Shown: positions 76-40,490, counted from the first letter of the stretch. The stretch is 64,000 nucleotides of DNA from Elusimicrobiota bacterium (GCA_016218545.1 JACRDQ010000038.1:66986-130985), one strand, 5' to 3'. Notes: generated by a model not told the origin, from the sequence alone. Made by a program: numbers and translations.

Positions 76-2670
76 GTGGAGGGGGCCGCGGTCTCCGCGG
101 CGCCCCGGACGGGCTTGCAGCCCGCCCAGCTCAAGAAGATCGACCCGGCCACGCGCCCCTATTCCCCGTGGCGGCTCTCGACCTTCCTCCAGGACCCCGA
201 GAAGTACGCCATGCTCTTCATCTTCGGCGCGGACGACCAGGCTTTCCGCGAGGTGCGGGGCTACGAGCTCCTCGTGGGCGACGCCGTGCACCAGGCCTTC
301 GAATCCGTCTACAAGAGGGTCCAGGCCGGGACCCCGGGCAAGGACATCAAGCTTGACGAGGCCCTCGCGGTCTACGCCAAGGTCTTCGACGAAGGGCACA
401 AGTCCGGCGGCTACACCGAGCGCTCCGGCTGGAAGGCTTCGGAGTACAAGCGCCGCGGCACGGACTACATCAAGACCCGCTTCGGGCGGCTGGCTCCGTT
501 CGAGAGCCAGGGCAAGGTCCTCGCCATCGAGGAGCGCGTGTTCTGGACCATGAAGGACCCGGCCACGGGCAAGTCCTACGACTTCAAGGGCCGCATCGAC
601 CGCCTCATGCTCAAGGGCGACACGGTCTACATCCGCGACTGGAAGACCCACTTCGCGCCCCCGACCCTGACCCAGCTCGAGCGCGACGACTTCCAGCTGG
701 GGCTCTACGCCTTGGGCCTGGTCCGCACCCGGCCGGACCTGGTGAAGGGCCGCAAGCTCGTCATCGCCTGGGACTTCAAGGAGTTCACCCAGGAGATCGT
801 GGTGGACGAGGCCTATCTGGCCCGGACCGAGGCCCAGGTCCTCGACATCCTGCGCCGCATCGAGGTCTTCACCGCCCGCGTCGAGGCGGAGAAGCCCGAG
901 TGGTTGAAGCGCCTCGGCCCCGACTCCAACCCGGCGGGCGCGGCCCGCGCCCGCGCCGCGGTCGACGAGCTGGGGAAGATGCGCGATGGGATGGACGCCA
1001 AGGCCTCGGAGCTGCGCGCCTTGCGGCGCGAGTACAAGAACAAAGAGGAGGGCGTGACGCGCTACGCTCTGAGGATGAAGCAGTCCCAGGTCAAGGGCAA
1101 GCGTTATACCCTCGACGTCGCCAAGACCAAGGAAGAGGCGGCCCTGCCGACCAAGACCGACGACCTCGAAGGCTATGAGGAGGTCGTGCGCATCTTAAAG
1201 GAAGGCGGGGCCTGGGACAGCCTCTCCAGTCTGGACGCGGCCTCGGTCCGGAAGGCCGTGGAAGCCCTGGGCGGCGACGACCACCAGGCTTTCGAGAAGC
1301 TCAAGGCCCTCATCAAGTCCGGGCATCTCAACGAGGTCGAGACCTATCTCAAGAACGCCAAGGCCTCGGGCGGCGGCGTGGTCAGGCCCAAGATCGAGCG
1401 CGACGCGATCGCTCCCGATTCCCAGCCCGGCGTGCTCTCCCCGACCCAGCTCGACGTCTTCCTTCGGGACGAGACCGAGTACGCCGAGCGCTACATCGTG
1501 CGCATGCGCGAGGAAGGCCCCAAGGCCATGGGCACCCTGGCCGGCTCCGTCATCCACGGGACCATGGAGCAGCTCTACGTCTGGATCAAGGGCGGCCGCG
1601 AAGTCGCGGACATCCACTACAACGACCTCATGAAGTTCTTCGACGCCCGGTGGGAAGAGGAGAAGGCCCAGGGCGCGTACGTCCCGGACAAGGGCGTCTC
1701 CGAGGCCGATTACATCAAGGGCTCCAAGGAGTATGTGAAGGCCAAGTGGGACAAGCTCTACCCCTTCGACCTGGGCCGGCCCGTGTTCCTCGAGAAGAGG
1801 ATGTTCTTCACCCTCACGGACCCCAAGACCGGCAGGACCTACAAGTTCCAGGGCATCCCGGACCGTGTCATGATCGAGGGCGACACCGTGGTCATCCGCG
1901 ACTGGAAGTCCCATTATAAGGAGCCGACCGCGGCAGAGGTCAAGGCCAAGGACTACCAGCTCGGCCTCTACGTCCTGGCCCTCAGGCAGCTCTACCCGGA
2001 CCTCATGAAAGGCCGCAAGGCGCGGCTCGTCTGGGACTTCAAGAGCAAGGAGGTCGTCATCGACGTGGACGACCAGTACCTCCAGGGCCTGGAGAAGAGG
2101 CTCTTCGCGGTCCTGCGCAGGATGGACTCCTTCAAGGCCAAGGTCGAGTCCCAGCGCGAGAAATGGGAGGAGGAGCTTGGCCTCGTCACCGTGCCCAGGA
2201 CCAAGAAAGCCGCGGCCGACGCCGTAGACGGCCTGGGCAGGCTGGCGGACAAGATCGTGGCCCTTGAGGACGCTCTGGCCCCCCTCAAGGAGAAGGAGGC
2301 CGCCCTGGAGACCGAGGTCGCCGCCTTCAGCAGCCAGACCGGCTGGGTCCGGGTCCACGGTTCCGAGTACAGTTCCAAGCTGGTCAAGCGCGGCAATGTC
2401 GCGGTCCCGACCAAGGGACGCGAGCGCCAGGCCTACGACCAGGTGACCGCCATCCTCAAGGCCGCCGGGGTCTGGGAAAAGTACTCGAGCCTGGACTACT
2501 CGGCGCTCAGGAAGGCCCTGGCCGACCCCGATCACCCTGACCGGGCCGTGCTCGAGAAGCTCGAGCCGCTCCTCAAGGACATCGACAACGTCAAGGTCAA
2601 GCTCAGCAAGACCCTGAAGAAGGACAAGCCCAGGAAGAAGAAAGCATCAGGCAGGAAAGCCTCGAAGTAG
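76..2670 (+). CDS. Tandem-duplicated PD-(D/E)XK (RecB-like) nuclease-domain protein, about 864 aa. The reading frame is open back to base 1, so the gene may be 5'-partial.
   Basis: Two repeated modules each carry a GDAVHQAFE-like motif, an acidic residue, then hhDWKT/S (YIRDWKTH, VIRDWKSH) and QLGLY. This matches the RecB-family PD-(D/E)XK motifs II-III and QhxxY. Each module is followed by a coiled-coil linker and a repeated 'ILKxxGxWxxxSSLD..RKA' segment. The C-terminus is Lys-rich. No stop codon in frame between position 1 and 76. Confidence 0.55.
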   Translation: MEGAAVSAAPRTGLQPAQLKKIDPATRPYSPWRLSTFLQDPEKYAMLFIFGADDQAFREVRGYELLVGDAVHQAFESVYKRVQAGTPGKDIKLDEALAVYAKVFDEGHKSGGYTERSGWKASEYKRRGTDYIKTRFGRLAPFESQGKVLAIEERVFWTMKDPATGKSYDFKGRIDRLMLKGDTVYIRDWKTHFAPPTLTQLERDDFQLGLYALGLVRTRPDLVKGRKLVIAWDFKEFTQEIVVDEAYLARTEAQVLDILRRIEVFTARVEAEKPEWLKRLGPDSNPAGAARARAAVDELGKMRDGMDAKASELRALRREYKNKEEGVTRYALRMKQSQVKGKRYTLDVAKTKEEAALPTKTDDLEGYEEVVRILKEGGAWDSLSSLDAASVRKAVEALGGDDHQAFEKLKALIKSGHLNEVETYLKNAKASGGGVVRPKIERDAIAPDSQPGVLSPTQLDVFLRDETEYAERYIVRMREEGPKAMGTLAGSVIHGTMEQLYVWIKGGREVADIHYNDLMKFFDARWEEEKAQGAYVPDKGVSEADYIKGSKEYVKAKWDKLYPFDLGRPVFLEKRMFFTLTDPKTGRTYKFQGIPDRVMIEGDTVVIRDWKSHYKEPTAAEVKAKDYQLGLYVLALRQLYPDLMKGRKARLVWDFKSKEVVIDVDDQYLQGLEKRLFAVLRRMDSFKAKVESQREKWEEELGLVTVPRTKKAAADAVDGLGRLADKIVALEDALAPLKEKEAALETEVAAFSSQTGWVRVHGSEYSSKLVKRGNVAVPTKGRERQAYDQVTAILKAAGVWEKYSSLDYSALRKALADPDHPDRAVLEKLEPLLKDIDNVKVKLSKTLKKDKPRKKKASGRKASK

Positions 2671-2691
2671 GCGCGGGCGCGTCGCAGTCAT

Positions 2692-2721
2692 CCCCGGATC
2701 CCTGTTGACCAGGCTCCGGGG
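2692..2721 (+). terminator. Candidate stem-loop after the nuclease gene (CCCCGGA ... TCCGGGG, 16-nt loop)
   Basis: A 7-bp inverted repeat lies 22 nt after the stop codon at 2670 and is followed by gctgcgtttcggg. No strong U-tract. Confidence 0.25.
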
Positions 2722-2801
2722 ATGCTGCGTTTCGGGTGGGCAAGGCTGTTTCATGACTCTCGTCATACTTTCCCCTGGCGTTTGTGGTCTACTATAAAGG
2801 A

Positions 2802-3707
2802 ATGGTGCCAAGACCCTGGTCCCTGCTCCTCATCCTCGGCCTTGCCGGGTGCGGGAAGGATGAGGCCATTCCCACGGTCATCCTCTCGGACAAGGCTGTA
2901 GTGGAGAAGCCCGCCTTGCCTAGGGGAGAGGAACTGCGCTTCTCCGCGCCGGCCAGGCTCTCTCCCAAGAAGGCTTACAGCGAATACCAGGCGCTCTTCA
3001 GTCATGTGGCCAGGAGCCTGGGCAAGCGCGGTCACACCGTGACCCGCGAGACCTACGCGGAGAGCCTTTCCCTGCTGGAGCACCGCGAGATCGACGTTGC
3101 CTATCTCTGCGCCGCCAGTTATGTGATCGGCAAGTCCAAGTTCGGGGCCGAGATCCTTGCCGTGCCCGTGGTCAAAGGCAGGGCAGCGGACGCCTCCTGC
3201 CTCATCGTCCATAAGGAAAGTCCGGTCATGCGCTGGGAAGACCTCAAAGGGAGGTCCTTCGCGTTCACCGACCCCGACTCCAACGCAGGGTGGCTCGTGC
3301 CCGTGGACTTGCTCGCCTCCAAGGGCGTCTCCCCCCAGGTCTTCTTTTCCAAGACCATCTACACGCGCGCCCATGACAACTCGGTCAAGGCCGTGGCGAG
3401 CGGCCTGGTGGACGCCGCGGCCATTCATTGCAACGTGCTCGACGAGGTCCTAGAGGAGGCTCCATCGGCGGCGTCCCGGGTGCGGGTGGTCTGGAAGTCG
3501 GCGCATTTCGCCATGCCGCCCATCGCGGTCCATCCCGGGCTCGACCCTGCCTTGAAGGCGCGCCTGCGCGAGGCCTTCCTCGCCCTGCATCGGGCCCCGG
3601 AAGGCGCCAGGCTCCTGCGCAAGGCCGGAATCGAGCGCTTCACGGTGATAGACGACTCCGCCTACGAACCGATCCGCAGGATGCGCGCTGCCGTGGACCG
3701 GAGATGA
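2802..3707 (+). CDS. PhnD-like (phosphonate-type) ABC substrate-binding lipoprotein, with no cognate permease or ATPase nearby; a likely sensory co-receptor
   Basis: Start at the second Met. It is preceded by an aaagga RBS and gives the lipoprotein signal MVPRPWSLLLILGLAGCG. The body resembles the PhnD/SsuA periplasmic-binding fold (VAYLCAASYV, FAFTDPDSNAGW, RVVWKS). The stop overlaps the start of the downstream kinase gene. Confidence 0.65.
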   Translation: MVPRPWSLLLILGLAGCGKDEAIPTVILSDKAVVEKPALPRGEELRFSAPARLSPKKAYSEYQALFSHVARSLGKRGHTVTRETYAESLSLLEHREIDVAYLCAASYVIGKSKFGAEILAVPVVKGRAADASCLIVHKESPVMRWEDLKGRSFAFTDPDSNAGWLVPVDLLASKGVSPQVFFSKTIYTRAHDNSVKAVASGLVDAAAIHCNVLDEVLEEAPSAASRVRVVWKSAHFAMPPIAVHPGLDPALKARLREAFLALHRAPEGARLLRKAGIERFTVIDDSAYEPIRRMRAAVDRR

Positions 3708-5131
3708 TGGCTGCGCGGCGCGCAGGGGGGCTGAGCATCAGGGGCAGGCTCCTCCTGGGGTCCGCCGGGGTCATCCTGCTCTTCGGAGGTCTTGTGCTGG
3801 CAGGGCTCTACCGGGCTATGCTCGGCTTGTTCATGGAGGAGCTGGTCCGCAGGGGGTACGCCATCGCGGACACCCTGCTGGAGCCGTCCCAGAATCTCCT
3901 CCTGACGGAGGACTCCTTCGCGCTCCAGCAGGTCCTCCAGTCCTCGCTCAGCCGCCACCATGACGTGCGCTACGCGTTCGTGGCTGATGCCGAAGGCAGG
4001 GTCGTGTCTCATACGTTCATGGGAGGCTTCCCCAAAGGGCTTGACCGGGCGGTGCTGCTGGACCCCGGAGAGGCATCCCGCTCCCGTCCCGTGCGCACCG
4101 AGGAGGGCTTGATCTACGACGTGGGCGTGCCCTTGCAGGGCCTGGGGAGCATCCATGTGGGGATGCGGTCCGCCGAGGTCGCCCGCCGCGTCGTCAGGGA
4201 CACCATGGGCTGGGGCAGCACCGCCGCAGGGGCGCTCATGCTGGGCGCGGTGGTCATCTGGTGGCTGACCGGCCGCCTGGCCGCGCGCCTGAAGGATCTG
4301 GTGGGAGCGGCGGAGGAGGTGGGCGCGGGCAGGCTCGACGCGGTCGTGCAGGACCGCGGGGAGGACGAGGTGGGGCGCCTGGCCAGGGCCTTCAATGCCA
4401 TGACGCGGGACCTCAAGGAATACCAGGCCCGGGCCCTGAGGGCCGGGAAGCTCGCCGCCATCGGCGAGCTCGCCTCTTGCGTGGCCCATGAGATCAACAA
4501 CCCCCTCAATACGATGGGGGTTTGCGCCCAGGCCCTTCTTGAGCGGGCATCGAGCCCGGAGCTGCGCGCGTCCGCCGAGTTCTCCGACTTCCCGGAATAT
4601 CTCAAGACCATCGACAGCGAGGTGAGCCGCTGCAAAAGGATCACGTCCGAGCTCCTGCTCTTCGGACATCCGCGCGAGCCCCGCCTGGAGCCCGTGGACC
4701 TCAATGAGCTCGTCTCGGAGTCCCTCGGACTGCTCGAGCACAGGCTCCGGGGCGCGGAGGCGGCGGTGGAGACGGTCCTGGCCCCGGGGTTGCCGAGGCT
4801 CCATGCCGACTCGGACCAGCTCAAGCAGGTCCTCCTCAATCTCGTGGGAAACGCCCTCGATCACATCAGACCCGGCGGTCAGGTCCGGATCGCGACGGCC
4901 AAGCATGGCCGGGAGCTGGCCTTGAGCGTCACCGACGACGGGCCGGGCATCCCGCCCGAGCATCGCGACAAGGTCTTCGACCTCTTCTTCACCACGAAGA
5001 AGGCCGGCGCGGGCTCGGGGCTCGGCTTGGCGATCTGCCAGAGGATCGTCGACAGCCACGGGGGCCGCATCGCGGTCGAGAGCCGGCCGGGCCGGGGCGC
5101 TGTCTTCACCGTTTCCCTTCCCATCCGCTGA
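3704..5131 (+). CDS. Sensor histidine kinase with TM, HAMP, HisKA and HATPase domains
   Basis: The ATG at 3704 overlaps the upstream stop codon (gagATGAtgg). There is a TM region and a HAMP-like segment. The H-box is ELASCVAHEINNPLN. The ATPase N, G1 and G2 boxes are present (NLVGNALDHI, DDGPGIP, GSGLGLAICQ). The longer ORF given in the track (from 3428) is an out-of-context upstream extension. Confidence 0.8.
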   Translation: MMAARRAGGLSIRGRLLLGSAGVILLFGGLVLAGLYRAMLGLFMEELVRRGYAIADTLLEPSQNLLLTEDSFALQQVLQSSLSRHHDVRYAFVADAEGRVVSHTFMGGFPKGLDRAVLLDPGEASRSRPVRTEEGLIYDVGVPLQGLGSIHVGMRSAEVARRVVRDTMGWGSTAAGALMLGAVVIWWLTGRLAARLKDLVGAAEEVGAGRLDAVVQDRGEDEVGRLARAFNAMTRDLKEYQARALRAGKLAAIGELASCVAHEINNPLNTMGVCAQALLERASSPELRASAEFSDFPEYLKTIDSEVSRCKRITSELLLFGHPREPRLEPVDLNELVSESLGLLEHRLRGAEAAVETVLAPGLPRLHADSDQLKQVLLNLVGNALDHIRPGGQVRIATAKHGRELALSVTDDGPGIPPEHRDKVFDLFFTTKKAGAGSGLGLAICQRIVDSHGGRIAVESRPGRGAVFTVSLPIR

Positions 5132-5262
5132 GGGGCGTTCCGCCCAAGTCGGATTCAAGTCATCTTCTTTCCTTGAGGGCCGTCATTCTTATCATCCATG
5201 GCGTTTGGGACAATGTGCTCAATCGGAGCGGCGCCGGGAAGGCCGCTGGGATGGGAGGAGCG

Positions 5263-6165
5263 ATGAACGTGATGTCGACGCGCATGAGGATGTCAGGCTC
5301 GATCGTCATTTTGGGATTGGCGCTGGGGGTCGTGCCGGTGGCCTTCGGCGCGGAGGCTCCGGCTGCCGCCGGGACCGAGAAGTGCCAGTCATGCCACGCG
5401 GACGTCGCCAAGGCGTTCGGGTCGACCAAGCACGGCAAGGCCGCCTACTACGGCGTGCAGGGAGCCGGCTGCGTGTCGTGCCACGGCGAAAGCGAGAAGC
5501 ACGCGGGCTCCGGGGATAAGGCGGACGCCTTCAACCCCGCGAAGGCCGACCCCGAGAAGGTCAACGAGACCTGCCTGGAGTGCCACAGCAAGACCAAGGC
5601 CCTGATGTTCTGGAATGGGAGCGCCCACTCGAACAACGAGCTCGGCTGCGTCGCCTGCCATTCGGTCCACGGCGGGAAGGACAAGCTCCTCAAGGCCGCG
5701 GACGACAAGGCCGTGTGCTTCACCTGCCACAAGAACGTCCGGGCCGCGATGTTCGCCCGCTCCAAGCATCCGATGCGGGATTCCTCCAATCCCAAGGGCG
5801 AGGGCAAGATGACGTGCGCCTCCTGCCACAACCCGCACGGCTCCGAGTCCGAGAAGCTCATCAGCGCGAAGTCCGTCAACGACAAGTGCTATGAGTGCCA
5901 CACGGAGAAGAAGGCCCCGCTCCTCTGGGAGCACTCCCCGGTCAAGGAGGACTGCCTCACCTGCCACGCCGCTCACGGCGCGGCCAATGACAAGCTCCTC
6001 ACGGTCCGCCCTCCCAGGCTCTGCCAGTCGTGCCACATGCAGGGGCGCCACCAGAGCGGCACCTTGGACGTCAACTCCGTGTACGCGATCGGCAGGTCCT
6101 GCTTGAACTGCCATCCGATGGTGCACGGCTCCAACAGCCCGTCGGGCCCCGTCCTTCAGCGGTGA
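5263..6165 (+). CDS. Periplasmic decaheme c-type cytochrome of the MtrA/MtoA/PioA family
   Basis: Ten CXXCH motifs are present: CQSCH, CVSCH, CLECH, CVACH, CFTCH, CASCH, CYECH, CLTCH, CQSCH and CLNCH. The mature part is about 300 aa, which is MtrA/MtoA size. An N-terminal signal peptide is present (MNVMSTRMRMSGSIVILGLALGVVPVAFGA). The start could equally be 5248. Confidence 0.85.
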   Translation: MNVMSTRMRMSGSIVILGLALGVVPVAFGAEAPAAAGTEKCQSCHADVAKAFGSTKHGKAAYYGVQGAGCVSCHGESEKHAGSGDKADAFNPAKADPEKVNETCLECHSKTKALMFWNGSAHSNNELGCVACHSVHGGKDKLLKAADDKAVCFTCHKNVRAAMFARSKHPMRDSSNPKGEGKMTCASCHNPHGSESEKLISAKSVNDKCYECHTEKKAPLLWEHSPVKEDCLTCHAAHGAANDKLLTVRPPRLCQSCHMQGRHQSGTLDVNSVYAIGRSCLNCHPMVHGSNSPSGPVLQR

Positions 6166-6217
6166 CCGGGGTCGACGCTGAAAGATCATGACCTATAGAA
6201 AAGGAAGGGTGGATACC

Positions 6218-8656
6218 ATGGAGGCTACAATGAGAGGTAAGGGCATGAGCCGCAAGACATTCCTTGGGGCCCTGCTGGCCGTCGCGCTCGCCACGGGTGC
6301 CCAGGCGGCCAATGACGTCATGGACGGCAAGCTCACGGTCGCAGTCGACGCCCAGGTGGGCGTCCAGGCACGGCAGACCGACGACTCCGTCGAGAAGTTC
6401 AACGAGTACCGCGACGTCCAGACGGGCTTCTTCCTCGACGACTTCCGCTTCTCCGCCGATGGGACCGATAGCCCGTACTATGTCGGGTTCAGGGCAAGGC
6501 ATGCGCTCCGGGCCGACGAGACCTATAAGCTCGGTTTCGGCCGGCACGGGCAATACGGCGTGCGCTTCTCCTATGACAGCCTGCCGCACAACTTCGCGCA
6601 AGGCAAGCTGCTCTACAGCGGCGTGGGGACCGGGGACCTGGTCATCGCGGACCAGCTCCAGGCGGACCTGCAGGCTCTCGAGCAGACCGAGAACGACCGC
6701 GACGCCGCGGCCAACAAGGTCAATCCCCTCGTGGACGTCACGGGTGAGGACGCCCTGACCAAGGGCATCGTGGACGGCCTCTACTCGACCAGGGACTTCA
6801 CGGTCCTCAAGCTCAAGAGGGAGAAGGCCAGCCTGGCCTTCGACTACGACGTCGCCAACGACGTCAAGACCTGGATGAAGGTCTCCCACGAGAAGCGCGA
6901 CGGGGCCAGGACCATCAATGCCGGCTCCTACGAGCGGTGGGATCAGGGCGCTGCCGGCTTGACCCACCTCAAGGACCTCTTCACCATCTCGGGCGCGGAG
7001 CTGGCTGAGCCGGTGGACTACAGGACCATCGTGTTCGCGGTCGGAGCCGGCGTCTATAAGAAGGCTTGGCTCGCGGACGCGGAATACTCGTTCACGGACT
7101 TCAACAACGACTACTCGGCCTTGCGCTGGGACAATGCCCTGAGGAGCACGGACGAGATCGGCAGGACCGCGGCGGCGGGCGGGGCCACGCTCGGCAACAA
7201 CTACAACAGGGGCCGGTTCGTCCGGGGCCAGCTCGGCCTTCCGCCGGACAGCCAGTCCCACCAGGTGAACTTCAACGGCTCGGTGGAGCTTCCCCTGCAC
7301 AGCAGGTTCGCGGCCAGCCTGGGTTACGGACTGATCGAGCAGAACCAGGCCTTCAACCCGTTCTCGCTCAACACGGCGATCTCTCCCAGGGCCGGCCTGG
7401 ACGTGACCAACCCGGCCGCGCTCCCGGAGAGCGGTCTCCACGGCGCGGTCACGACCCTGACCCAGAGCTACGTGCTCTCGAGCAAGCCGATCGAGAGCCT
7501 TTCTCTCGCGGCGAAGTACCGCTTCTACAAGTACAAGAACGACACCAGGAGGATCTCGCTGCCCGGCTACGCGGCCTGGGGAGAGAGCGATTGGCGCACC
7601 GTCAGGAGCGACGCGGGCACGGCCGTGCAGAACGACACGCTCGGGTTCACGAAGCACACTGTGGACTTCTCGGCCGACTACAAGGTCGCCAAGCCCCTGA
7701 CCGTGGGCGTGGAGACCGGCGTCGAGTACTGGGATCGCGACGAGGTTCGGGTGGACAAGACCAAGGAGTTCAGCGTGGGCGGCAGCTTCATCTACAGGCC
7801 CGCGGACTTCGCGAGCTTCAAGGCCGCCTACAAGTTCGCCAAGCGCACGGACACGGGCTATATCGAGGGAGCGGTCAAGAAGAACCCGGAGGCCGCCGGC
7901 TTGCGGAACTTCGACTGGGCCGAGCGCACGCGCAACAAGGCCGACGGCAGGCTCCTGCTCTACCCGTCCGACTCCGTTTCCGTGGGCTTCTCCGGCCAGT
8001 TCCAGCGCGACCAGTTCGCCAAGGACACCCGGTTCGGGCTCAAGTCGGTCGAGGCGTCGAACGGGTCCGTGGACGTCTCCTACAGCCCGTCCGAGACGCT
8101 GAACATGTTCGCGAGCTATACCCGGGAGCACCGGCGGAGCAAGATCAAGAATGGGGCCAAGGACGATGCCTTCAACGCGGCCGGGCCTCTAGACGACAGC
8201 TTCACGACCAGCAACTTCAATCCGTACAACGAGTGGAACAGCAACATCTCCGAGGACGTGGACACCCTGGGGTTCGGGGCCAACGTGGCGGTCATCCCGG
8301 AGAAGCTCGAGCTCGACGCGAGCTACAACTTCTCCCACTCGAGGACCGACACCTATACATATAATCCGAACGGCCAGGCGAAGCTCGGCAACGGCGAGGC
8401 CAAGGACTGGCCGCTCGTCAAGAACAGCCTGCACGAGATCAAGGCCGACCTGGGGTACAAGTTCACCAAGAGCATCAAGGCAGGGACTCGCTACATGTAC
8501 GAGGGGTTCCACCTGACGGACTTCGCTTGGGAGAACCTCCAGCCTTACATGCCCGGCTACAGCGCGGAGAACTCGACCCGCTATCTCTTCGCGGACGCGA
8601 CCTACCGGAATTACGACTCGCACGTCGGGATGGTGTACCTGAACTATTCGTTCTGA
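6218..8656 (+). CDS. MtrB/PioB/MtoB-family outer-membrane beta-barrel, about 810 aa. It would be the porin partner of the upstream decaheme cytochrome.
   Basis: The gene follows the decaheme gene after about 50 nt. Signal peptide ...FLGALLAVALATGAQA. The body is Tyr/Gly/Asp-rich with alternating amphipathic strands and ends in ...YLNYSF, the C-terminal Phe typical of outer-membrane proteins. The size matches PioB/MtoB. Start is ambiguous between 6188, 6218 and 6230. Confidence 0.6.
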   Translation: MEATMRGKGMSRKTFLGALLAVALATGAQAANDVMDGKLTVAVDAQVGVQARQTDDSVEKFNEYRDVQTGFFLDDFRFSADGTDSPYYVGFRARHALRADETYKLGFGRHGQYGVRFSYDSLPHNFAQGKLLYSGVGTGDLVIADQLQADLQALEQTENDRDAAANKVNPLVDVTGEDALTKGIVDGLYSTRDFTVLKLKREKASLAFDYDVANDVKTWMKVSHEKRDGARTINAGSYERWDQGAAGLTHLKDLFTISGAELAEPVDYRTIVFAVGAGVYKKAWLADAEYSFTDFNNDYSALRWDNALRSTDEIGRTAAAGGATLGNNYNRGRFVRGQLGLPPDSQSHQVNFNGSVELPLHSRFAASLGYGLIEQNQAFNPFSLNTAISPRAGLDVTNPAALPESGLHGAVTTLTQSYVLSSKPIESLSLAAKYRFYKYKNDTRRISLPGYAAWGESDWRTVRSDAGTAVQNDTLGFTKHTVDFSADYKVAKPLTVGVETGVEYWDRDEVRVDKTKEFSVGGSFIYRPADFASFKAAYKFAKRTDTGYIEGAVKKNPEAAGLRNFDWAERTRNKADGRLLLYPSDSVSVGFSGQFQRDQFAKDTRFGLKSVEASNGSVDVSYSPSETLNMFASYTREHRRSKIKNGAKDDAFNAAGPLDDSFTTSNFNPYNEWNSNISEDVDTLGFGANVAVIPEKLELDASYNFSHSRTDTYTYNPNGQAKLGNGEAKDWPLVKNSLHEIKADLGYKFTKSIKAGTRYMYEGFHLTDFAWENLQPYMPGYSAENSTRYLFADATYRNYDSHVGMVYLNYSF

Positions 8657-8826
8657 GCCCGCCCAGGCGGGCAGATTCGCCGGTGCGGCCTGGGGCTCGC
8701 GAGAGCGGGCCCCAGGCTCCGGGGTCCCCCAGGAGCGCCCGTCTTCCGAATCCGGAAGAGCCGGCTCCTCTCTTTTCCAGCCGCGGCCGGACTCGGGATT
8801 TGCCGTCCGGCCTCTGAACGGGTATA

Positions 8827-10191
8827 GTGTCCATGGATGAAGAGCGCGGGTGGTACGGCGTGAGGAAGCTCTCGGTCCTCGTCGTCGACGACGAGGAGGG
8901 CTTCTGCCGCTGCCTCGGCAAGGAGTTCGGCCGCAAGGGCTACGCTGTCTCAGCCGCGCATGACGGCAAGGCCGCCTTGGAGGCCCTCGCGAAGGCCCAG
9001 GCGGACGTCATGCTGCTCGACGTCGTCCTTCCCCGGTTGAGCGGCACGGAGGTCCTCAAGAGGGTCCGGCGGGACCATCCGCGCACCCAGGTCATCATGC
9101 TGACCGGAAACGCCACGGTCGAGACCGCCATCGAGTCCATGAAGCAGGGCGCCTTCGACTACCTGACCAAGCCCGTGAACCTCGCGGAGCTCTGCCTGGT
9201 GGTGGAGAGGGCCTTCGAGGCGACGCGGGTCCGCGCGGAGAACGAGGCCTTGCGCTGGGAGCTGGGCCGGAGGACGAGGTTCGACGAGTTCGTGGGCAAG
9301 CACGCCTCCGTCGTGGAGATCAGGAAGATGGTCTCCAGGGTCGCGGAGACCGACTCTCCGGTCCTCATCTGCGGCGAGACCGGCACGGGCAAGGAGCTGG
9401 TGGCCCGGATGCTCCATCACGAGAGCAGGCGGTCCAAGGCCCGCTTCCTCGCGGTCAACTGCGCCGCGTTCCAGGAGAACCTGCTCGAGACCGAGCTTTT
9501 CGGCCACGAGAAGGGCGCGTTCACGGACGCCGGGGCGCGCAAGCCCGGCCTGGTGGAGCTGGCGGACGGCGGGACCCTTTTCCTCGATGAGATCGGGAAC
9601 ATGAGCCCCGCGGTCCAGGCCAAGGTCCTGCGCCTGCTCGACGCCGGGGAGTACCGCAGGGTGGGCGGCACCGACGACCTGAAGAGCGCCTGCCGCGTGG
9701 TCAGCGCCACCAACCAGGACCTCGGCAAGGCCATCAAGGACGGCCGTTTCCGGGAGGACCTCTACTACAGGCTCAACGTCGTGATGATCAAGACCCCGCC
9801 CCTGCGCGAGCGCAGGGAGGACGTGCCCCTGCTCGTGGAGCACTTCCTCGACAAGGTGCATGCCTTGCAGACCCGGGGCCGCAAGACCATGAGCCGTCCT
9901 GCCCTGGACCTGATCCTGGGCCATCCCTGGCCGGGGAACGTCCGGGAGCTCGAGAACGCGGTGGAGCGGGCCGTCATCCTGTCCGAGGGCTCGGTCATCG
10001 AGCCCTCGGCCCTGTGCCTGCCGTGCCTGGAGGCGGGGCGCAGCGTGGGCGACGCTCTGGCCGATGTCGAGAAAGCCCACATCCTCGCTGTGCTCGGCCG
10101 CACCGGGGGGAACAAGAGCCAGGCGGCGGCCATCCTCAAGGTCGACGTCAAGACGGTCTACAACAAGCTCAAGGAATTCGGGATCGCGTAG
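8827..10191 (+). CDS. Sigma54-dependent response regulator of the NtrC family (REC, AAA+ and Fis-type HTH domains)
   Basis: A receiver domain is present (VLVVDDEEGF..., D in LLDVVLP). The Walker A motif is GETGTGKE. GAFTGA-type and ESELFGHEKGAFTDA segments are present. The C-terminal HTH is AAILKVDVKTVYNKLKEFGI. Confidence 0.85.
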   Translation: MSMDEERGWYGVRKLSVLVVDDEEGFCRCLGKEFGRKGYAVSAAHDGKAALEALAKAQADVMLLDVVLPRLSGTEVLKRVRRDHPRTQVIMLTGNATVETAIESMKQGAFDYLTKPVNLAELCLVVERAFEATRVRAENEALRWELGRRTRFDEFVGKHASVVEIRKMVSRVAETDSPVLICGETGTGKELVARMLHHESRRSKARFLAVNCAAFQENLLETELFGHEKGAFTDAGARKPGLVELADGGTLFLDEIGNMSPAVQAKVLRLLDAGEYRRVGGTDDLKSACRVVSATNQDLGKAIKDGRFREDLYYRLNVVMIKTPPLRERREDVPLLVEHFLDKVHALQTRGRKTMSRPALDLILGHPWPGNVRELENAVERAVILSEGSVIEPSALCLPCLEAGRSVGDALADVEKAHILAVLGRTGGNKSQAAAILKVDVKTVYNKLKEFGIA

Positions 10192-10223
10192 GGAATATTT
10201 CCACTGTCCGTGGAAATATTCCC
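10191..10223. promoter_or_regulatory. Perfect 14-bp inverted repeat GGGAATATTTCCAC-N5-GTGGAAATATTCCC. It is a candidate enhancer (UAS) for the adjacent sigma54 activator and/or a terminator.
   Basis: Read directly. It begins at the stop codon of the NtrC-like gene. It lies about 100-130 bp upstream of the candidate -24/-12 promoter at 10323-10338. Confidence 0.45.
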
Positions 10224-10322
10224 GGCCGCTTGGGCGCGCCAGCGCCGGGCCTCCCCTTCGTTCCGCCGGTTTCTCGTCGGAGACCGGGCCAGCCCGGTCT
10301 CCCCGGTCTTCGGTCATCCCAT

Positions 10323-10338
10323 TGGCAGGATTGATGCC
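10323..10338 (+). promoter_or_regulatory. Candidate sigma54 (-24/-12) promoter TGGCAG-gattg-ATGC upstream of the FNR-like gene
   Basis: The sequence ttGGcaggattgaTGCca has GG and GC spaced exactly as in the TGGCAC-N5-TTGC consensus. A GGAGG RBS lies at 10355-10359 and the ATG is at 10371. Confidence 0.35.
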
Positions 10339-10370
10339 AGTATCGAAGATGACCGGAGGCATCATCAACC

Positions 10371-11138
10371 ATGGGATACGACAGGACTGCCGCGCCTAAA
10401 TTCGTCTGCCCTCAGCCCGCTTCAGCCGGCTGCGCGGCCTGCACCTGCGAGAAGCGCTGTTTCCTCGGCCTTCTGGACCCGGACCAGCGCCGACGCTTCA
10501 GGGCCGAGAGGATCCACCGGCTCTACCGGTCCAGGCAGATCATCTTCAGCCCAGGGGACGCGCCGCAGGGCCTCATGATCCTCTGCCGCGGCTCGGTCCG
10601 GATCGCCTTCACCACGGAGCAGGGCCGCCAGGTCACGGTGGGCTACGCTTCCTGCGGGGAACTGCTGGGCGAGGCGGCCTATGTGGCAGGCAAGCCGCAC
10701 GCCTTCACGGCCGAGGCTCTGGGGGACTCCTTCGTGAGCTTCCTTCCCAAGGCCCTCTCGGACGAGCTCCTGGCGGAATCTCCCAAGCTGGCCCGCCGCG
10801 TGGCCGAGGACTCCTGCGGAAGGTACTGCGCGACCGCCAAGCTCGCGTCCAACTGGATCCTCAAGTCCGCCGACGCCAAGCTGGCCGAGTTCCTCCTTTC
10901 GGATGAGGCTGGAGCGGTCCCGGACATGCCCTGCAAGCCCCATCAGCGCCTGAGCCGGAAAAGCCTTTCCGAGCACGTGGGACTTGCGCCTGAGACCGTG
11001 ATCCGGAGGCTCAGCGACTTCAAGAGGCGCGGCCTGGTCCGGTTCGCGGGCAAGGCCGTGGAGATCGTTGACCGCGGAGCGCTCGCTGCCGTGGCCTCGG
11101 ACCACGGCCAGGCCGCCGCCTCGGCGATCTGGACCTAG
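10371..11138 (+). CDS. CRP/FNR-family transcription factor with an N-terminal Cys cluster (FNR-like redox sensor)
   Basis: The N-terminus is CPQPASAGCAACTCEKRC, with five Cys in a C-x7-C-x2-C-x-C-x3-C arrangement. A cNMP-binding beta-roll follows (IIFSPGDAPQGLMILCRGSVRI). The C-terminal HTH is SRKSLSEHVGLAPETVIRRLSDF. Confidence 0.8.
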   Translation: MGYDRTAAPKFVCPQPASAGCAACTCEKRCFLGLLDPDQRRRFRAERIHRLYRSRQIIFSPGDAPQGLMILCRGSVRIAFTTEQGRQVTVGYASCGELLGEAAYVAGKPHAFTAEALGDSFVSFLPKALSDELLAESPKLARRVAEDSCGRYCATAKLASNWILKSADAKLAEFLLSDEAGAVPDMPCKPHQRLSRKSLSEHVGLAPETVIRRLSDFKRRGLVRFAGKAVEIVDRGALAAVASDHGQAAASAIWT

Positions 11139-11259
11139 CGGGGCCTTTTGAGCCGGCTCAGCCTCTCCAGAACCTCGGTCCAGGCCGGCCGGACTCCCTC
11201 GTCCTGGAACCTCAAGCACCCGGTCTGCGTGAAGCGCGGCAGCAAGGTGCCGGACTTAT

Positions 11260-11300
11260 CCACAAACTCTTCTTACGAGGAGTTTGTGGCTGACTTTCTG
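11260..11300. terminator. Bidirectional rho-independent terminator candidate between the convergent FNR-like and PLD genes
   Basis: CCACAAACTC-(10-nt loop)-GAGTTTGTGG is a perfect 10-bp stem. It is followed by ctgactttctg and sits in a locally AT-richer patch. Confidence 0.45.
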
Positions 11301-11373
11301 CGGGCGTCTTGGCCGGGGTGGCGGTGGCAGGGTCCTCAGGGACCCTTTGGCCCGTCCTCGCCAAGCCATCCCG

Positions 11374-14300
11374 CTATCGGGAGGCTCCCACGGGGACGGC
11401 GGGGCTCGCGGATTCCAGCGGCGAGCCTGAATCGTTGTGAGGGGGCGCCCGGGCCGCGATGCCGCGGGGCTTGGGCTTGCGCTTGGGGGGCGCCGGCTTC
11501 CAGCCCTGGAGCCAGAGGCGCTGGAAGTAGACGGTGTAGCCCGCCAGGGTGGCGTCGTCGTCGAAGAAGTTGGCGTTCTCGAAGGAGTTGTTCTCGGCGT
11601 TGGGGGAGTAGTTGAAGGAGCCGGTCTCGAGGAACTTCCCGTCGACCATCATGAGCTTGTTGTGCATCTTCTCGAACATGGGGTCGCCGTCTTCCCCGCG
11701 CGGGCCCTGGATGAGGCGGGTGTCGAAGCCGTGCCAGGCGAACCAGTCGTCGATCTTGGAGACCTTGGACTGGGAGTAGTCCATCACGATGCGGATGGCG
11801 ACCTCGGGCCGGTTGTTCTTGACCTCGAGGAGGGCGTCCGCGATGGCCTGGGAATAGAAGCTGAACATCGCGATCTCGATGGAGACCTTGGCGGCCTTGA
11901 TGGCCCGGATGAGGGCGGCCTCGATCGCGCCCTGCGGGGAGAAGAGCTGGCGCGGGAAGGCCTCATTGCCCAGCTTGATGGGCTGGTCCGTGTCCTGGGG
12001 CGGGGGAGGGTACTCGGGCCTGCGCAAGTGCGTGCCCGAGGCCTCGCCGGCGTCCTGGGCCTCCTGCATGGACCGCAGGGTCCGGGCCAGGATCTCGTCG
12101 AGCTTGGCCATGTCGATGTCCTCGGCCAGGCCGCGCATGTACTGGAAATACTTCAGGTGGGCCGCCACCCGGCCCGCGTCCTTGGTGAAGATGAAGTTCT
12201 CGAAGTGGCTCTGCTCGGCCACGTCGGTCAGGTTGTAGGAGCCGAAGCCGACGAGCCCGTCGTCGACCACCATGATCTTGTTGTGCATGACCCCGCTGCG
12301 CTTGCCGCGCAGGATCTTGACGTCGAATCCCTCCTTGATGAGGGCCACGACCTGGGGCTTGGGCTTCCTGGGCTGGTCCTCGTGGTTGATGCCCGAGGTG
12401 TAGACATGGTTGCGGTCGAGCACGAGCTCGACCTTGACCCCGCGGGTCTTGGCCCGGCGCAGGGCCTCGAGGATGGACTCGGAGGTGAACTCGTAGAGGG
12501 CCAGGCGGATGGTCTTCTTGGCCGCGTCGATGGCCTTGATGATGTTGGGGGCGATGGGGTGGTCCGGCAGGAGCGCGTAGGAGGGCAGTTGGGCGCCGTT
12601 GAAATCCACGATGGGCGCGGCCGGGAGGTCCGGGAGGTCCGGCGCCGGCGGGGTGGGCTTGGGCGGCGGAGGGTTGAGGATGTCGTGCAGGAGCTCCTCA
12701 TCCGTGGGGAGGACGGGCAGCTGCGCGGGCTTGGCGAACGCCTGCGCGATCTTGAACATGTGCTCGAAGGCGAAGGAGAAGGCCGCGGCGTCGGTCTTGT
12801 CGTCGAGGAAGTGCGCGTTCTCGTAGTTGTCCACCGAGGCGCGCTTCGTCCAGTTGGCCGAGCCGGTCTCGACGATCCTGCCGTCGAGGATCATGAACTT
12901 GTGGTGCGTCTTCTCCGCCATGGGGAAGTCGCTGTCCGGGTTGGGGCCGGCCAGGGTCTTGACCGCGATGCCCTTGCTCGCCAGCCACTGGACGAACGGG
13001 CCGAAGTACTCCGAGGTGGACTGGCTCTCGTCCATCACCATGCGGACCTTCACCCCGCGCTCATGGGCGCGGACCAGGGCGTCCGTGATCCTGCGCGAGC
13101 GCAGGGCGAACATGGCCACGTCCACGGACTTCTTGGCCGCGTCCAAGCCCTTGACCACCGCGTCCTCGAACGCGGTGCCGTCGGGCATGAAGAGGATGGC
13201 GGGCAGGGCCGTGCCGTTCAAGTCCACGGTCCCGGCCTGGGTCCCGGCCGGGGGCTTGGCCGGGGTCTGCGGCCAGGAGTGCTCCCTGGCCTGGGCGAAG
13301 GGCACGCTGATGCCCAGGAGGTAGTCGTAGTACTCTTTGAGGGCCCAGACCCGGCTCTTCTGCGTGGTGAAGAGGGCGTTCTCGTAGTGGCTGTTCTCTG
13401 AGGTGAAGGAGTAGTTGTAGGAGCCGAACTGCGCGAGCCTGCCGTCGAAGATGGCGAACTTGTTGTGGTTGATGCCGTAGGCCGTCACCCCGCGCAGGAC
13501 GCGCAGGTCGTAGCCGTCGCGGATGAGGCTCCAGAGCTCGTTGGAGCGGCGCATGCGGTAGGCCGCGTCCGGGTCGTTCTTGGGGAAGACGTTGGAGTAA
13601 TCGACGATGAGTTGGATCTTGACCCCGCGGCGCTTGGCCCGGGCCAGGGCGTCCATGACGGCCCGGTTCTTGAACTCGTAGAGGGCCAGGCGGATGGTCT
13701 TGCGGGAGGCCTTGATGGCCTTGACGATCTCGTCTTCGACCGGGACATTGGGCCGCAGGGCCACGGAGGGGAACTCTTTGTTGTTGAAGGTGACCGTGCG
13801 GACCGGATAGTCCGCGCCGCCGCCGTCGTCCGAGTTGGAGGCAGGCTCCTCGGCCTTGGCCCTGCCCCTGCCCGCGGTCTCGTAGTCGAGCCCGGCGGAC
13901 TCGTAGTCGAGCCCTGCGGCCTCGTAGTCGATGGGGCTGGCGGCCAGGTCCGCGCCGGCGACCGCGCCTGCGGCCGCGCTCTCGGCGCCGAGCTTGAAAT
14001 CGAAGCTGCGGTCCGCGTACTCCTTCTGGCCCTGCAGGTCCGCGGCCTTGGGCTCGGCGAAGGGGACCTCGGCCGAGAGGCGCTCGAAGGCGCCGCGTCC
14101 CGCCTCCTCGGAGCCGGCCGCTTCCTGGGTCTTGACCGGGGTCTTGGAGACCGACAGGACGGAGGACGGCAGCGAGGTCTCGGGAGTCGCGAAGCTTCGG
14201 CCTGCCTCCGGTGCCGCGGGGAGGGCGGGCTGGGCCAGGACGGGCAGGCCCGGCTGCGCGGTGTCGGAGAGAGCGGGAGCGGCCACGCTGTTGACGCTCG

Positions 14301-14493
14301 GGGCGAGGAAGCCCGAGCCGCCGGTGAGCCGGTCGAGCCGCAGGTCCATGGCCGGGGCCGACATGGACACCGGGACCGCGGGGATGGCGTTGTTGCCGGA
14401 CGGCAGGCTCACGGCTCGGATCTGCTGGGCCAGCCCCGACGAGGGCGTGGTCCAGAGGATGATGGCGAGCGCCCAGAGCGCTGCGCGAGGCAT
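11374..14493 (-). CDS. Secreted PLD-superfamily protein with four HKD motifs (two complete catalytic units), 1039 aa
   Basis: Signal peptide MPRAALWALAIILWTTPSSGLAQQ, then a Pro/Ala/Leu-rich low-complexity leader. Four HxK(x4)D(x6)GSxN motifs are present: HNKFAIFDG..GSYNYS, HHKFMILDG..GSANWT, HNKIMVVDD..GSYNLT and HNKLMMVDG..GSFNYS. Confidence 0.8.
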   Translation of the reverse strand: MPRAALWALAIILWTTPSSGLAQQIRAVSLPSGNNAIPAVPVSMSAPAMDLRLDRLTGGSGFLAPSVNSVAAPALSDTAQPGLPVLAQPALPAAPEAGRSFATPETSLPSSVLSVSKTPVKTQEAAGSEEAGRGAFERLSAEVPFAEPKAADLQGQKEYADRSFDFKLGAESAAAGAVAGADLAASPIDYEAAGLDYESAGLDYETAGRGRAKAEEPASNSDDGGGADYPVRTVTFNNKEFPSVALRPNVPVEDEIVKAIKASRKTIRLALYEFKNRAVMDALARAKRRGVKIQLIVDYSNVFPKNDPDAAYRMRRSNELWSLIRDGYDLRVLRGVTAYGINHNKFAIFDGRLAQFGSYNYSFTSENSHYENALFTTQKSRVWALKEYYDYLLGISVPFAQAREHSWPQTPAKPPAGTQAGTVDLNGTALPAILFMPDGTAFEDAVVKGLDAAKKSVDVAMFALRSRRITDALVRAHERGVKVRMVMDESQSTSEYFGPFVQWLASKGIAVKTLAGPNPDSDFPMAEKTHHKFMILDGRIVETGSANWTKRASVDNYENAHFLDDKTDAAAFSFAFEHMFKIAQAFAKPAQLPVLPTDEELLHDILNPPPPKPTPPAPDLPDLPAAPIVDFNGAQLPSYALLPDHPIAPNIIKAIDAAKKTIRLALYEFTSESILEALRRAKTRGVKVELVLDRNHVYTSGINHEDQPRKPKPQVVALIKEGFDVKILRGKRSGVMHNKIMVVDDGLVGFGSYNLTDVAEQSHFENFIFTKDAGRVAAHLKYFQYMRGLAEDIDMAKLDEILARTLRSMQEAQDAGEASGTHLRRPEYPPPPQDTDQPIKLGNEAFPRQLFSPQGAIEAALIRAIKAAKVSIEIAMFSFYSQAIADALLEVKNNRPEVAIRIVMDYSQSKVSKIDDWFAWHGFDTRLIQGPRGEDGDPMFEKMHNKLMMVDGKFLETGSFNYSPNAENNSFENANFFDDDATLAGYTVYFQRLWLQGWKPAPPKRKPKPRGIAARAPPHNDSGSPLESASPAVPVGASR

Positions 14494-28541: not shown

Positions 28542-29855
28542 ATGAACATCATGCTGGCCGCGGCGGTCCTGGCCCTGAACCTCGTCTGCGTCCGCATGGC
28601 ATCTGCGGACGAGGGACGCTGGGCGCAGGCCATGGCCGCGGCCGCAGGGGCGGCGGCCCTGCCCGGGTCATTCGACGGCATCCGGATCCCGGGCGGAGCG
28701 GCCCCCATGCTCCCCTTGCCGCGGTTGCCGGTCTTCCGGGCCGCTCCTCCGGCGGGGACCGTTCCGACGGAGGTCGCGTTCAACGGGATCACGCTTCCCC
28801 GGAGCGCGTTCACCAGCAGGGAGTCGCTCAGCGGGCACCTCGTCCGGGCCATCGACGCCGCGAAAGGCAGCCTCAAGCTCCTGCTCTACGACCTCAGCCT
28901 CGAGGACGTGGCCGCCGCGCTCCAGCGCGCCGCTTCGCGCTCTCCGTCGGTCGAGATCATGGTCGTGCTCGACCAGGGACACGTCTTCCCCAGGCGGGGC
29001 CGCAAGGCCAATGCCGTCATCACCAGGCTCCTGGCCGACCCCCGGATCCAGGCCAGGATCGTGGCGGGCTTAGGCGACTTCGGCCTCATGCACAACAAGA
29101 TCGCCGTGTTCGACGGGGTCCTGGTCAAGACGGGCTCGTTCAACTGGACGAAGTCCGCGGAGAAGTCGAACTACGAGAACGCGGTCTTCTTCGACGACGC
29201 CGAGCGCGTGGCGGCCTTCAGCGCCTATTTCGACTGGGTCTGGGCCTTGTCCGGCCCTCCCGACGCGCCCCGGCCTCCGCCCACGGTCGAGGGCGCCCCG
29301 CCCGAGGACGCCTCCCCCGGCGTGGAGTTCCACGGCGCCCGCCTGCCCGCCGCGGCCTTCTCGCCCAAGGGCGGCACGGCCGGCCGCCTGCTCGACGCCA
29401 TCGCTATCTCGAGGGAGTCCATCGACGTCGCGATGTTCAGCTTCACGAGCAAGACGCTCGCCGAGGCCCTGGCCGAGCGCAAGGCCGCGGGCGTGCGCGT
29501 GCGGGTGGTCCTGGACCGCAAGCAGTCGCGCAACGCCAACAGCGTGCTGGCCTACCTCCGCTCGCGGGGCGTCGACGTCGCGGTCATGGACGGCAAGACC
29601 AAGGCGGGCGTCCAGCACAGCAAGTACGCGGTCTTCGACGGCGCGGTCGTCGAGACGGGCTCTTACAACTGGACGGTCAACGGCGAGTCCTACAGCTTCG
29701 AGAACGCGGCCTTCCTCTCCGACCCGGGCTGCGTGGCGGGCTTCCAGGCGGACTTCGAGACGCTCTGGAGCCTGGGCCGCAAGGAGCTCCCGGCCTCCCT
29801 GGCTGCCTCGGATGGTCCTCAAGAGGACCCGTCTGAAGGCGCCGGAACCGACTAG
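28542..29855 (+). CDS. Secreted PLD-superfamily protein with two HKD motifs
   Basis: A signal peptide is present, together with an LPLPRLP leader. The two motifs are HNKIAVFDGVLVKTGSFNWT and HSKYAVFDGAVVETGSYNWT. Confidence 0.8.
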   Translation: MNIMLAAAVLALNLVCVRMASADEGRWAQAMAAAAGAAALPGSFDGIRIPGGAAPMLPLPRLPVFRAAPPAGTVPTEVAFNGITLPRSAFTSRESLSGHLVRAIDAAKGSLKLLLYDLSLEDVAAALQRAASRSPSVEIMVVLDQGHVFPRRGRKANAVITRLLADPRIQARIVAGLGDFGLMHNKIAVFDGVLVKTGSFNWTKSAEKSNYENAVFFDDAERVAAFSAYFDWVWALSGPPDAPRPPPTVEGAPPEDASPGVEFHGARLPAAAFSPKGGTAGRLLDAIAISRESIDVAMFSFTSKTLAEALAERKAAGVRVRVVLDRKQSRNANSVLAYLRSRGVDVAVMDGKTKAGVQHSKYAVFDGAVVETGSYNWTVNGESYSFENAAFLSDPGCVAGFQADFETLWSLGRKELPASLAASDGPQEDPSEGAGTD

Positions 29856-40100: not shown

Positions 40101-40167
40101 CCGGGCTCGAGACAAAGAGGAAGCCCCCGGCGCGAGCCGGGGGCTTCCTCTTCGGCGCGGACCCGGG

Positions 40168-40452: not shown

Positions 40453-40490
40453 AATCCCTCCTCTCCCAAGCAGGGAGTCAGCATTTCAAT

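Follow-up and report, generated by a model that had tools for sequence, protein, structure and literature searches.

The window analysed here is a 64,000-nucleotide stretch of DNA from an Elusimicrobiota bacterium (GCA_016218545.1 JACRDQ010000038.1:66986-130985), a G+C-rich sequence (~66%) whose region from 2.8 to 11.1 kb holds six genes, each on the + strand. They encode a binding protein (X), a histidine kinase (S), the two components of an MtrAB-type porin-cytochrome conduit, a sigma-54-dependent regulator (R) and an FNR-like regulator, in the order X-S-MtrA-MtrB-R and then the FNR-like gene (Table 1). An earlier note on this DNA, written from the sequence alone, had described these genes together with an ATGA overlap, a lipobox and the cysteine motif C-x7-C-x2-C-x-C-x3-C, and all of these elements are present where it placed them. 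The likely start of mtrA is the ATG at 5264, which is preceded by the ribosome-binding site GGGAGGAG, and the start of the regulator gene is ambiguous between GTG 8827, ATG 8833 and GTG 8860. The genes that flank the region are unrelated to it. With moderate confidence, we read the locus as an AioXSR-like three-component sensor that is dedicated to the conduit and wired through the FNR-like regulator.

Table 1. Genes and predicted regulatory elements at the sensor-conduit locus, with positions counted from the first nucleotide of the window.
Feature	Position	Strand	Basis or remark
FNR-type box ATGACTCTCGTCAT, ATGAC-N4-GTCAT, perfect palindrome	2753..2766	+	upstream of binding-protein gene
Lipoprotein sensor binding protein, AioX/ArrX subfamily of PF12974	2802..3707	+	profile match, solved relatives, subfamily Cys
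Sensor histidine kinase, TM-sCache_3_2-TM-HAMP-HisKA-HATPase_c (TM, transmembrane segment)	3704..5131	+	Pfam domains
Weaker FNR-type box TTGAGGGCCGTCAT	5173..5186	+	two mismatches, TGA-N6-TCA core kept; kinase-mtrA gap
Decahaem cytochrome, DmsE/MtrA family, periplasmic	5264..6165	+	10 CXXCH motifs; regulated target
MtrB/PioB outer-membrane porin	6188..8656	+	PF11854, 2.6e-114; regulated target
Sigma-70-like promoter TTGCCG-17-TATAGT	8800..8828	+	just upstream of regulator gene; only such match in 2500-11700
Sigma-54-dependent response regulator, REC + AAA+ (Sigma54_activat) + HTH_8, GAFTDA loop	8833..10191	+	Pfam
Two 13-bp dyads GGGAATATTTCCA and TGGAAATATTCCC, GGGAA-N3-TTCCC	10191..10223	+	centres 20 bp apart; putative upstream activating sites
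Putative sigma-54 -24/-12 promoter TGGCAGGATTGATGCC	10323..10338	+	33 nt upstream of FNR-like ATG
FNR-type box ATGACCGGAGGCAT, one mismatch	10349..10362	+	~+1 to +14 of the sigma-54 promoter
Crp/FNR-family regulator, five-Cys N-terminal cluster, recognition helix ETVIR	10371..11138	+	profiles and motif

The binding-protein and kinase genes are translationally coupled by a 4-bp ATGA overlap, in which the stop codon TGA of the first (3705-3707) shares bases with the ATG of the second (3704-3706) within AGATGATGG. Kinase orthologues that are 47-49% identical over their full length lie directly 3' of a binding-protein gene in six loci, and the overlap is kept in five of the six orthologous loci checked. 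The association extends well beyond these close relatives. Among metagenomic homologue loci with at least 900 bp of downstream sequence (n = 63), the gene immediately 3' of the binding-protein gene encodes the TM-sCache_3_2-TM-HAMP module in 51. Where the output domain that follows is visible, it is a fused sigma-54 AAA+ domain in 21 loci, a histidine kinase in 4 and something else in 17. Many homologue loci adjoin Fer4_11/NrfD/molybdopterin operons or multihaem cytochromes. In L007 (10001-19251), L034, L046 and L058, the partner of the PF12974 binding protein is a membrane-bound HAMP-sigma-54 activator of ~730 aa that lacks a receiver domain. These pairs adjoin Fer4_11/NrfD/molybdopterin operons, and the catalytic subunits at the four loci are 44-56% identical to a molybdoenzyme of locus L001 that bears an FNR-type box.

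The genes for binding protein, kinase and regulator form a contiguous X-S-R block in L003 (an Elusimicrobia metagenome-assembled genome), L005, L011, L012, L091 and L092. Identity to the window proteins is 42-48% for the binding protein and 57-62% for the full-length regulator (60-63% over its receiver domain), and the phospho-acceptor D63 of the regulator is invariant in its orthologues. An 8-bp overlap joins the kinase gene to the regulator gene in L003, L005 and L091. MtrA-MtrB follow the block in L003, L005 and L011; the contigs of L012, L091 and L092 end before any target gene would be visible. The preservation of the same gene set through rearrangement is good evidence of functional linkage. 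Because the regulator orthologues lie directly 3' of the kinase gene in all six blocks, the sigma-54 regulator is very likely the partner of the kinase, as had been proposed for this NtrC-type activator from the window alone, and gene order makes it very likely that the trio is dedicated to the conduit.

Other arrangements of sensors and conduits occur among the homologous loci. In L009, MtrA-MtrB are convergent with X-S and a regulator gene, and the regulator beside MtrAB (7514-8134, - strand) has REC and HTH_8 but no AAA+ domain in its 206 aa, a pattern that resembles the difference between ArrR and AioR. A scan of the genome collection with MtrB returned only two loci. The closest MtrB (52% identity) is found in L010 (3286-12451, Thermodesulfovibrionia). 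There, MtrA-MtrB are preceded by the gene for a Peripla_BP_6 binding protein, not homologous to X, which shares 4 bp with the gene for a GAF hybrid kinase, and then by genes for a second kinase and a REC-HTH regulator. The design is the same, a sensor upstream of the conduit, but its parts are different. Immediately upstream of the X-S-R block in L091 (812-1621) lies a gene for a 269-aa protein in which only Sigma54_DBD, with a weak HTH_3 match, is recognised.

Scans for cis-elements covered 903 kb, made up of the 64-kb window and homologous loci. The GGGAA-N3-TTCCC dyads of the window lie directly 3' of the regulator stop codon, and a pair of such dyads occurs only six times in this sequence. 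In five of the six cases the pair lies either just behind a regulator gene or in front of an FNR-like gene, and all five precede TGG-N8-WTGC wherever sequence is available. In L003, L005 and L011, one or two dyads lie in the regulator-mtrA gap (centres 22-23 bp apart), with a -24/-12 element on their 3' side, upstream of mtrA (TGGTCGGACCGTTGCC, TGGTCGTTCCGTTGCC and TGGATGGGCTGTTGCA, respectively); L003 and L005 have one perfect dyad together with TGGTCG-N5-TTGCC. In these three loci the same type of regulator appears to act on mtrAB without an FNR-like step, directly through a sigma-54 promoter. The sixth pair (L040:7117-7151, 22 bp apart) has no sigma-54 promoter match within 260 bp and no obvious context.

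Two further loci have a matching sigma-54 promoter in front of an FNR-like gene. In L001, dyads and TGGCAGATATGATGCC stand at the same place upstream of an FNR orthologue (66% identity), where the gene upstream of the dyads encodes a MoaA-like radical SAM enzyme and there is no adjacent regulator gene. In L094, a regulator gene 68% identical to that of the window lies upstream of a 47% identical FNR-like gene, and the same 16-base sigma-54 promoter is found between them. A 7-bp inverted repeat (GGTCATC ... GATGACC, 10311-10353) brackets the sigma-54 promoter of the FNR-like gene in the window and is largely conserved in L001 (GTCATC ... GATGAT).

The FNR-like protein matches PF00027 at 2e-16 (cNMP-binding-like beta-roll) and PF13545 at 1.6e-11 (Crp-type helix-turn-helix). 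It falls short of the NCBIfam cut-offs for Fnr (50.1 vs 228 bits) and FnrL (48.9 vs 300). Its N-terminal cysteines are residues 14, 22, 25, 27 and 31, so that C22-x2-C25-x5-C31 matches the C-x2-C-x5-C spacing of FNR and the cysteines at 14 and 27 are extra. Close relatives are few: an exhaustive HMMER search found five proteins at E up to 1e-30. P0002, P0129, P0130, P0131 and P0132 (64% to 34% identical) all retain C-P-x6-C-x2-C-x-C-x3-C, and the cysteine motif is conserved in six members of the clade. The conservation on which the earlier note had made its cluster proposal depend therefore extends to all five cysteines, down to 34% identity. More distant FNR-like relatives carry the plain FNR spacing. 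The window protein could hold a putative Fe-S cluster, judging from these motifs.

Boxes of the form ATGAC-N4-GTCAT are the candidate targets of this protein. A -10-like hexamer, TACTAT (2790-2795), lies 23 nt beyond the perfect palindrome in front of the binding-protein gene, and the weaker box in the kinase-mtrA gap is followed after 22 nt by GACAAT (5209-5214). Class II FNR promoters have a site centred at -41.5, and with this geometry the predicted transcription start of the binding-protein gene would fall at about its ATG. Only three perfect boxes occur in the 903 kb; all are intergenic and all are in the window or L001, both of which carry the FNR-like regulator. The two in L001 lie in a tatA/molybdoenzyme divergent region and upstream of an ACIII-like/multihaem operon, and a one-mismatch box precedes the gene for a 921-aa MtrC-like cytochrome. 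Five boxes share the same geometry of box, 22-23 nt and -10-like hexamer (TACTAT, GACAAT, TACAAT, TAAACT or TATCAT). A third Elusimicrobia assembly, L095, has four boxes with no more than one mismatch; all of them are intergenic, and one is 103 bp upstream of an MtrA-like gene. The outer bases of the box are unlike the FNR consensus and would fit the recognition helix ETVIR, compared with ETISR in FNR. The one-mismatch box beside the sigma-54 promoter could be an autoregulatory site.

Locus L095 has other features of this kind. Two tandem FNR-like paralogues (L095:5220-16744) lie between an ACIII-like/cytochrome bc operon and a multihaem/ResB/CcsA/MtrA-MtrB cluster whose multihaem cytochromes are 916 aa and 625 aa long. 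An array of four ATGAC-N4-(G/A)TCAT-like boxes, ~23 bp apart, occupies 6945-7027, and a sigma-54-like match, TGGCTGTTTTGTTGC, is located 28 bp upstream of the 916-aa multihaem gene.

These elements can be assembled into a regulatory cascade. The lipid-anchored binding protein would bind a small ligand and then dock on the sCache-like domain of the kinase, as its family membership and the gene coupling suggest. The contiguous, partly overlapping gene order in six related loci predicts that the kinase would phosphorylate the sigma-54 regulator. The phosphorylated regulator would in turn bind the two dyads and activate the promoter before the FNR-like gene, a step to which the conserved cis-elements point. 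The FNR-like protein, with its cluster active under anoxia or low redox potential, would bind ATGAC-N4-GTCAT about 41.5 bp upstream of the predicted starts. It would activate the binding-protein/kinase promoter, and it may activate mtrAB through the weaker box or by read-through. If this wiring is correct, then conduit expression would need both a periplasmic ligand and a redox signal, with positive feedback on the sensor. The earlier note had anticipated control by ligand and redox state, and the cis-elements do back combined control; however, the predicted wiring is serial, with one regulator acting through the other, and not parallel. Conclusions at the level of genes are strong, and the cis-regulatory cascade is a prediction that is coherent and has support across genomes.

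An unlikely alternative to this cascade is that the kinase and regulator activate mtrAB directly from an unrecognised sigma-54 promoter, while the FNR-like protein is a neighbouring but independent global anaerobic regulator. The sigma-54 promoter of the regulator directly precedes mtrA in L003, L005 and L011, and the FNR-like gene is not exclusive to the conduit, given that its L001 orthologue lies among other respiratory operons, away from MtrAB. Matches to TGG-N8-TTGC also exist within the kinase gene at 4122 and 4779, and the second of these (TGGCCCCGGGGTTGCC, 4779-4794, in the 3' part of the gene) would be the candidate promoter, with the same low likelihood. However, the 4779 match is coding sequence with no dyads near it, and by chance alone the window should hold ~7 such matches. 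Searches of the kinase-mtrA gap and of the sequence before the binding-protein gene found neither TGGCAC-N5-TTGCW (up to two mismatches) nor TGG-N8-WTGC; the only GG-N10-GC candidates there are AGGCTCCGGGGATGCT at 2711, which is weak, and a match that overlaps the mtrA ribosome-binding site. Direct sigma-54 control of mtrAB in the window was set aside on the basis of these searches. The dyads and sigma-54 promoter in front of the FNR-like gene recur across three organisms, which also argues for the serial arrangement.

A second alternative, which we consider improbable, is that the palindromes simply terminate the regulator gene, that the sigma-54 match arose by chance or serves another activator, and that there is no link between the regulator and the FNR-like gene. 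The two window dyads together do form a 14-bp hairpin (-30.1 kcal/mol, z = -5.0), and the equivalent element in L005 is a true intrinsic terminator, a hairpin followed by a U8 tract. The hairpins of the window, L003 and L011, in contrast, have no U tract. Each of the L011 dyads is symmetric in itself, yet the two are not mutually complementary, and the L001 dyads, which precede the FNR orthologue without a regulator gene, fold no better than shuffled sequence (z = 0.12). A promoter identical over 16 bases in L094 would also be unexpected if the sigma-54 match were fortuitous. The hairpin in the window and the terminator in L005 nonetheless mean that part of the dyad conservation may reflect termination, and a dual role as activator site and terminator is possible.

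Besides these hairpins, several observations weigh against the cascade. Dyads were not found in L094, even with up to two mismatches allowed, and the regulator has the loop GAFTDA in place of the canonical GAFTGA, a variant that is kept in five of six orthologues. The mtrA box is weak alone and only suggestive, with ~0.02-0.06 such matches expected in 132 bp. The nearest relative of the binding protein (L093, 56% identity) is encoded behind a sigma-70-like promoter with no FNR box. Another Crp/FNR paralogue elsewhere in the genome could bind the boxes. The position equivalent to Cys122 of FNR is Ser in the window protein (Thr in P0002 and Cys in P0129-P0132), and a cluster in the window protein would therefore need C14 or C27 as its fourth ligand. 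Finally, all promoter and binding-site assignments are predictions from the sequences of a few genomes.

The input to the proposed cascade is the binding protein, which matches PF12974 (Phosphonate-bd) at 9.8e-63. Its N-terminus is MVPRPWSLLLILGLAGCGK, and the signal peptide ends in the lipobox LAGC, whose cysteine is nearly invariant among 15 homologues. The best solved relatives are ArrX (3e-38) and AioX (3e-32), with HtxB, PtxB and PhnD ranking behind. AioX, ArxX and ArrX constitute a subfamily of non-transporting periplasmic binding proteins that signal via a kinase S and a regulator R to induce arsenic respiratory enzymes, and this subfamily has a pocket cysteine that PhnD lacks (PMC5908839). 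In the window, the binding-protein gene is flanked by a nuclease gene and the kinase gene. Among the open reading frames of 100 aa or more in the 64 kb, none has both a Walker A motif and an LSGGQ-type signature, and no transporter was found among the ~18 of ~40 window reading frames run against Pfam, PhnE-like permeases not being specifically searched for. The statement that the binding protein has no transporter genes thus holds for 64 kb by the motif search for ABC ATPases and partial Pfam coverage. That it is an ordinary phosphonate, phosphite or phosphate transport protein, serving an ABC importer encoded elsewhere and only incidentally adjacent to the kinase, is highly improbable: it matches PF12974 and passes the broad TIGR01098 subfamily cut-off (131 vs 112 bits), but it is below the PhnD equivalog cut-off (TIGR03431, 144.2 vs 261.1 bits), its best solved relatives are signalling-only sensors, it has the AioX-subfamily cysteine, many loci retain the 4-bp overlap of its gene with a sensor gene and the 64 kb hold no ABC ATPase-like reading frame by motif.

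The oxyanion pocket of AioX is formed by Tyr88, Cys106, Tyr131, Ser161, Ser163, His192 and Asp210 (PMC5908839). Four of these seven residues are kept in the window protein, as Y85, C103, S160 and H191, and three are changed, with D130 for Tyr131, A162 for Ser163 and H209 for Asp210. The full AioX pocket is therefore absent. C103, the equivalent of AioX Cys106, is invariant in 15 close and 91 wider homologues. The canonical pocket signature is intact in ~70 of the 91 and in all 11 homologues that adjoin molybdoenzyme operons. The five binding proteins with a confirmed MtrAB neighbour all lack the pocket Asp and have His or Ser there. A D130/A162/H209/C210 signature is common only to the window protein and its closest homologue, L093, among the 91.

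Because three pocket residues are replaced, arsenite or arsenate is probably not the ligand, and the molecule sensed probably differs from those recognised by AioX, ArxX and ArrX. A pocket rich in Cys, His and Asp hints at a metal species, although this is speculation. A bolder proposal, which we regard as rather doubtful, would make this protein the first periplasmic sensor dedicated to the physiological substrate that a conduit of the MtrAB/PioAB type handles. With its remodelled pocket (Cys103, Asp130, His191, His209 and Cys210), it would then bind a redox-active metal or metalloid, such as Fe(II), in place of the oxyanion bound by canonical members of the AioX family, and the conduit would be built only when substrate and anoxia coincide, via the sigma-54 and then the FNR-like step.

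The closest known systems are AioXSR/ArxXSR of Rhizobium sp. NT-26, Agrobacterium tumefaciens and Alkalilimnicola ehrlichii, and ArrXSR of Chrysiogenes arsenatis. They share with the window a signalling-only PF12974 binding protein with the subfamily cysteine (PMC5908839), a HAMP kinase with an sCache-like periplasmic domain, AioS being listed with such a sensor domain (PMC8050422), and a sigma-54 regulator of the AtoC/NtrC type, AioR and ArxR being AtoC-type activators (PMC5908839). Also shared is a respiratory operon next door that serves as target, together with a sigma-54 promoter and sites for the regulator (PMC5908839, PMC8050422). The window system differs in that its target is an MtrAB/PioAB conduit and not a molybdenum arsenic enzyme; no molybdopterin enzyme was found among the ~18 window reading frames run against Pfam. 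Other differences are that its binding protein is a lipoprotein with the three pocket replacements, that its target genes separate the regulator gene from the kinase gene and that the predicted sigma-54 promoter of its regulator drives an FNR-like regulator.

The earlier note had compared the binding protein with the co-receptors of TorT/TorS and LuxP/LuxQ, in which a periplasmic binding protein likewise serves a membrane kinase that controls a respiratory or behavioural output. The co-receptor idea itself is strengthened by the ArrX and AioX relationship, the 51 of 63 loci with the coupled module and the overlap kept in five of six, but AioXSR/ArxXSR is the closer analogue. TorT and LuxP are binding proteins of the ribose-binding type, from unrelated families, and TorS and LuxQ are hybrid kinases. 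TorR is an OmpR-type regulator, and LuxO, although sigma-54-dependent, is reached through a phosphorelay. Uncharacterised HAMP-sigma-54 activators such as that of L007 have the same binding-protein family and TM-sCache_3_2-TM-HAMP module and also adjoin periplasmic respiratory operons; their sensor, however, is fused to the sigma-54 AAA+ domain as one component, whereas the window has a separate kinase and regulator.

The FNR-like protein resembles Escherichia coli FNR in its Crp/FNR fold, in the C-x2-C-x5-C spacing (Cys20, Cys23 and Cys29 of FNR) and in a 5-4-5 palindromic box with a TGA core at a class II position. Unlike FNR, it has five N-terminal cysteines and no Cys122 equivalent, the helix ETVIR instead of ETISR and the box ATGAC-N4-GTCAT instead of TTGAT-N4-ATCAA, and its own gene appears to be sigma-54-dependent. 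There is precedent for Crp/FNR-family control of a conduit, as FixK/AadR control pioABC in Rhodopseudomonas palustris TIE-1 (PMC3050613). An incomplete literature search found no description of an XSR-type module or sigma-54 regulator tied to an MtrAB/PioAB/MtoAB conduit.

The remainder of the window has little obvious connection to the locus. The left flank (76-2670) encodes an 864-aa protein with two similar halves, each a PD-(D/E)XK nuclease-like module, and a Lys-rich tail. The right flank (11374-14493, - strand) encodes a 1039-aa secreted protein with four PLDc_2 domains, and a second PLD-like protein is encoded 14 kb away at 28542-29855. A reading frame at 11148-11615 was considered as a conserved partner of the FNR-like gene and rejected. 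It has no Pfam match, overlaps the convergent PLD gene and is unlike the cNMP-binding gene found 3' of the L001 FNR orthologue, and it is probably spurious. Beyond the PLD-like gene are genes for HEAT and TPR proteins, three TPR-Ser/Thr kinases, a radical SAM protein and a subtilase. The three TPR-repeat Ser/Thr protein kinase genes are consecutive (37641-45831; 819, 783 and 963 aa), and ATGAGTTTTCTCAT, an FNR-type box with two mismatches, is found in front of the second (40439-40452). No second sigma-54 activator or further multihaem cytochrome was found among the reading frames of the 64-kb window, and no known RNA element was found in 2400-11800 (Rfam, E up to 0.1).

To our knowledge, what induces porin-cytochrome conduits is known mainly from Shewanella and Rhodopseudomonas. 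The trio described here is a first candidate for a sensor that times the production of such conduits, and a soluble binding protein linked to a conduit offers a direct handle for ligand screening, as was done for AioX, ArxX and ArrX. Testable predictions also follow from the analysis, namely the regulator site GGGAA-N3-TTCCC, the variant FNR box ATGAC-N4-GTCAT and a clade of five-cysteine FNR proteins. The analysis also broadens the picture of the AioX sensors, a subfamily described in connection with arsenic oxyanions: in many uncultured bacteria, modules of this type, often fused to sigma-54 activator domains, stand beside molybdenum enzymes, decahaem conduits and further multihaem cytochromes.

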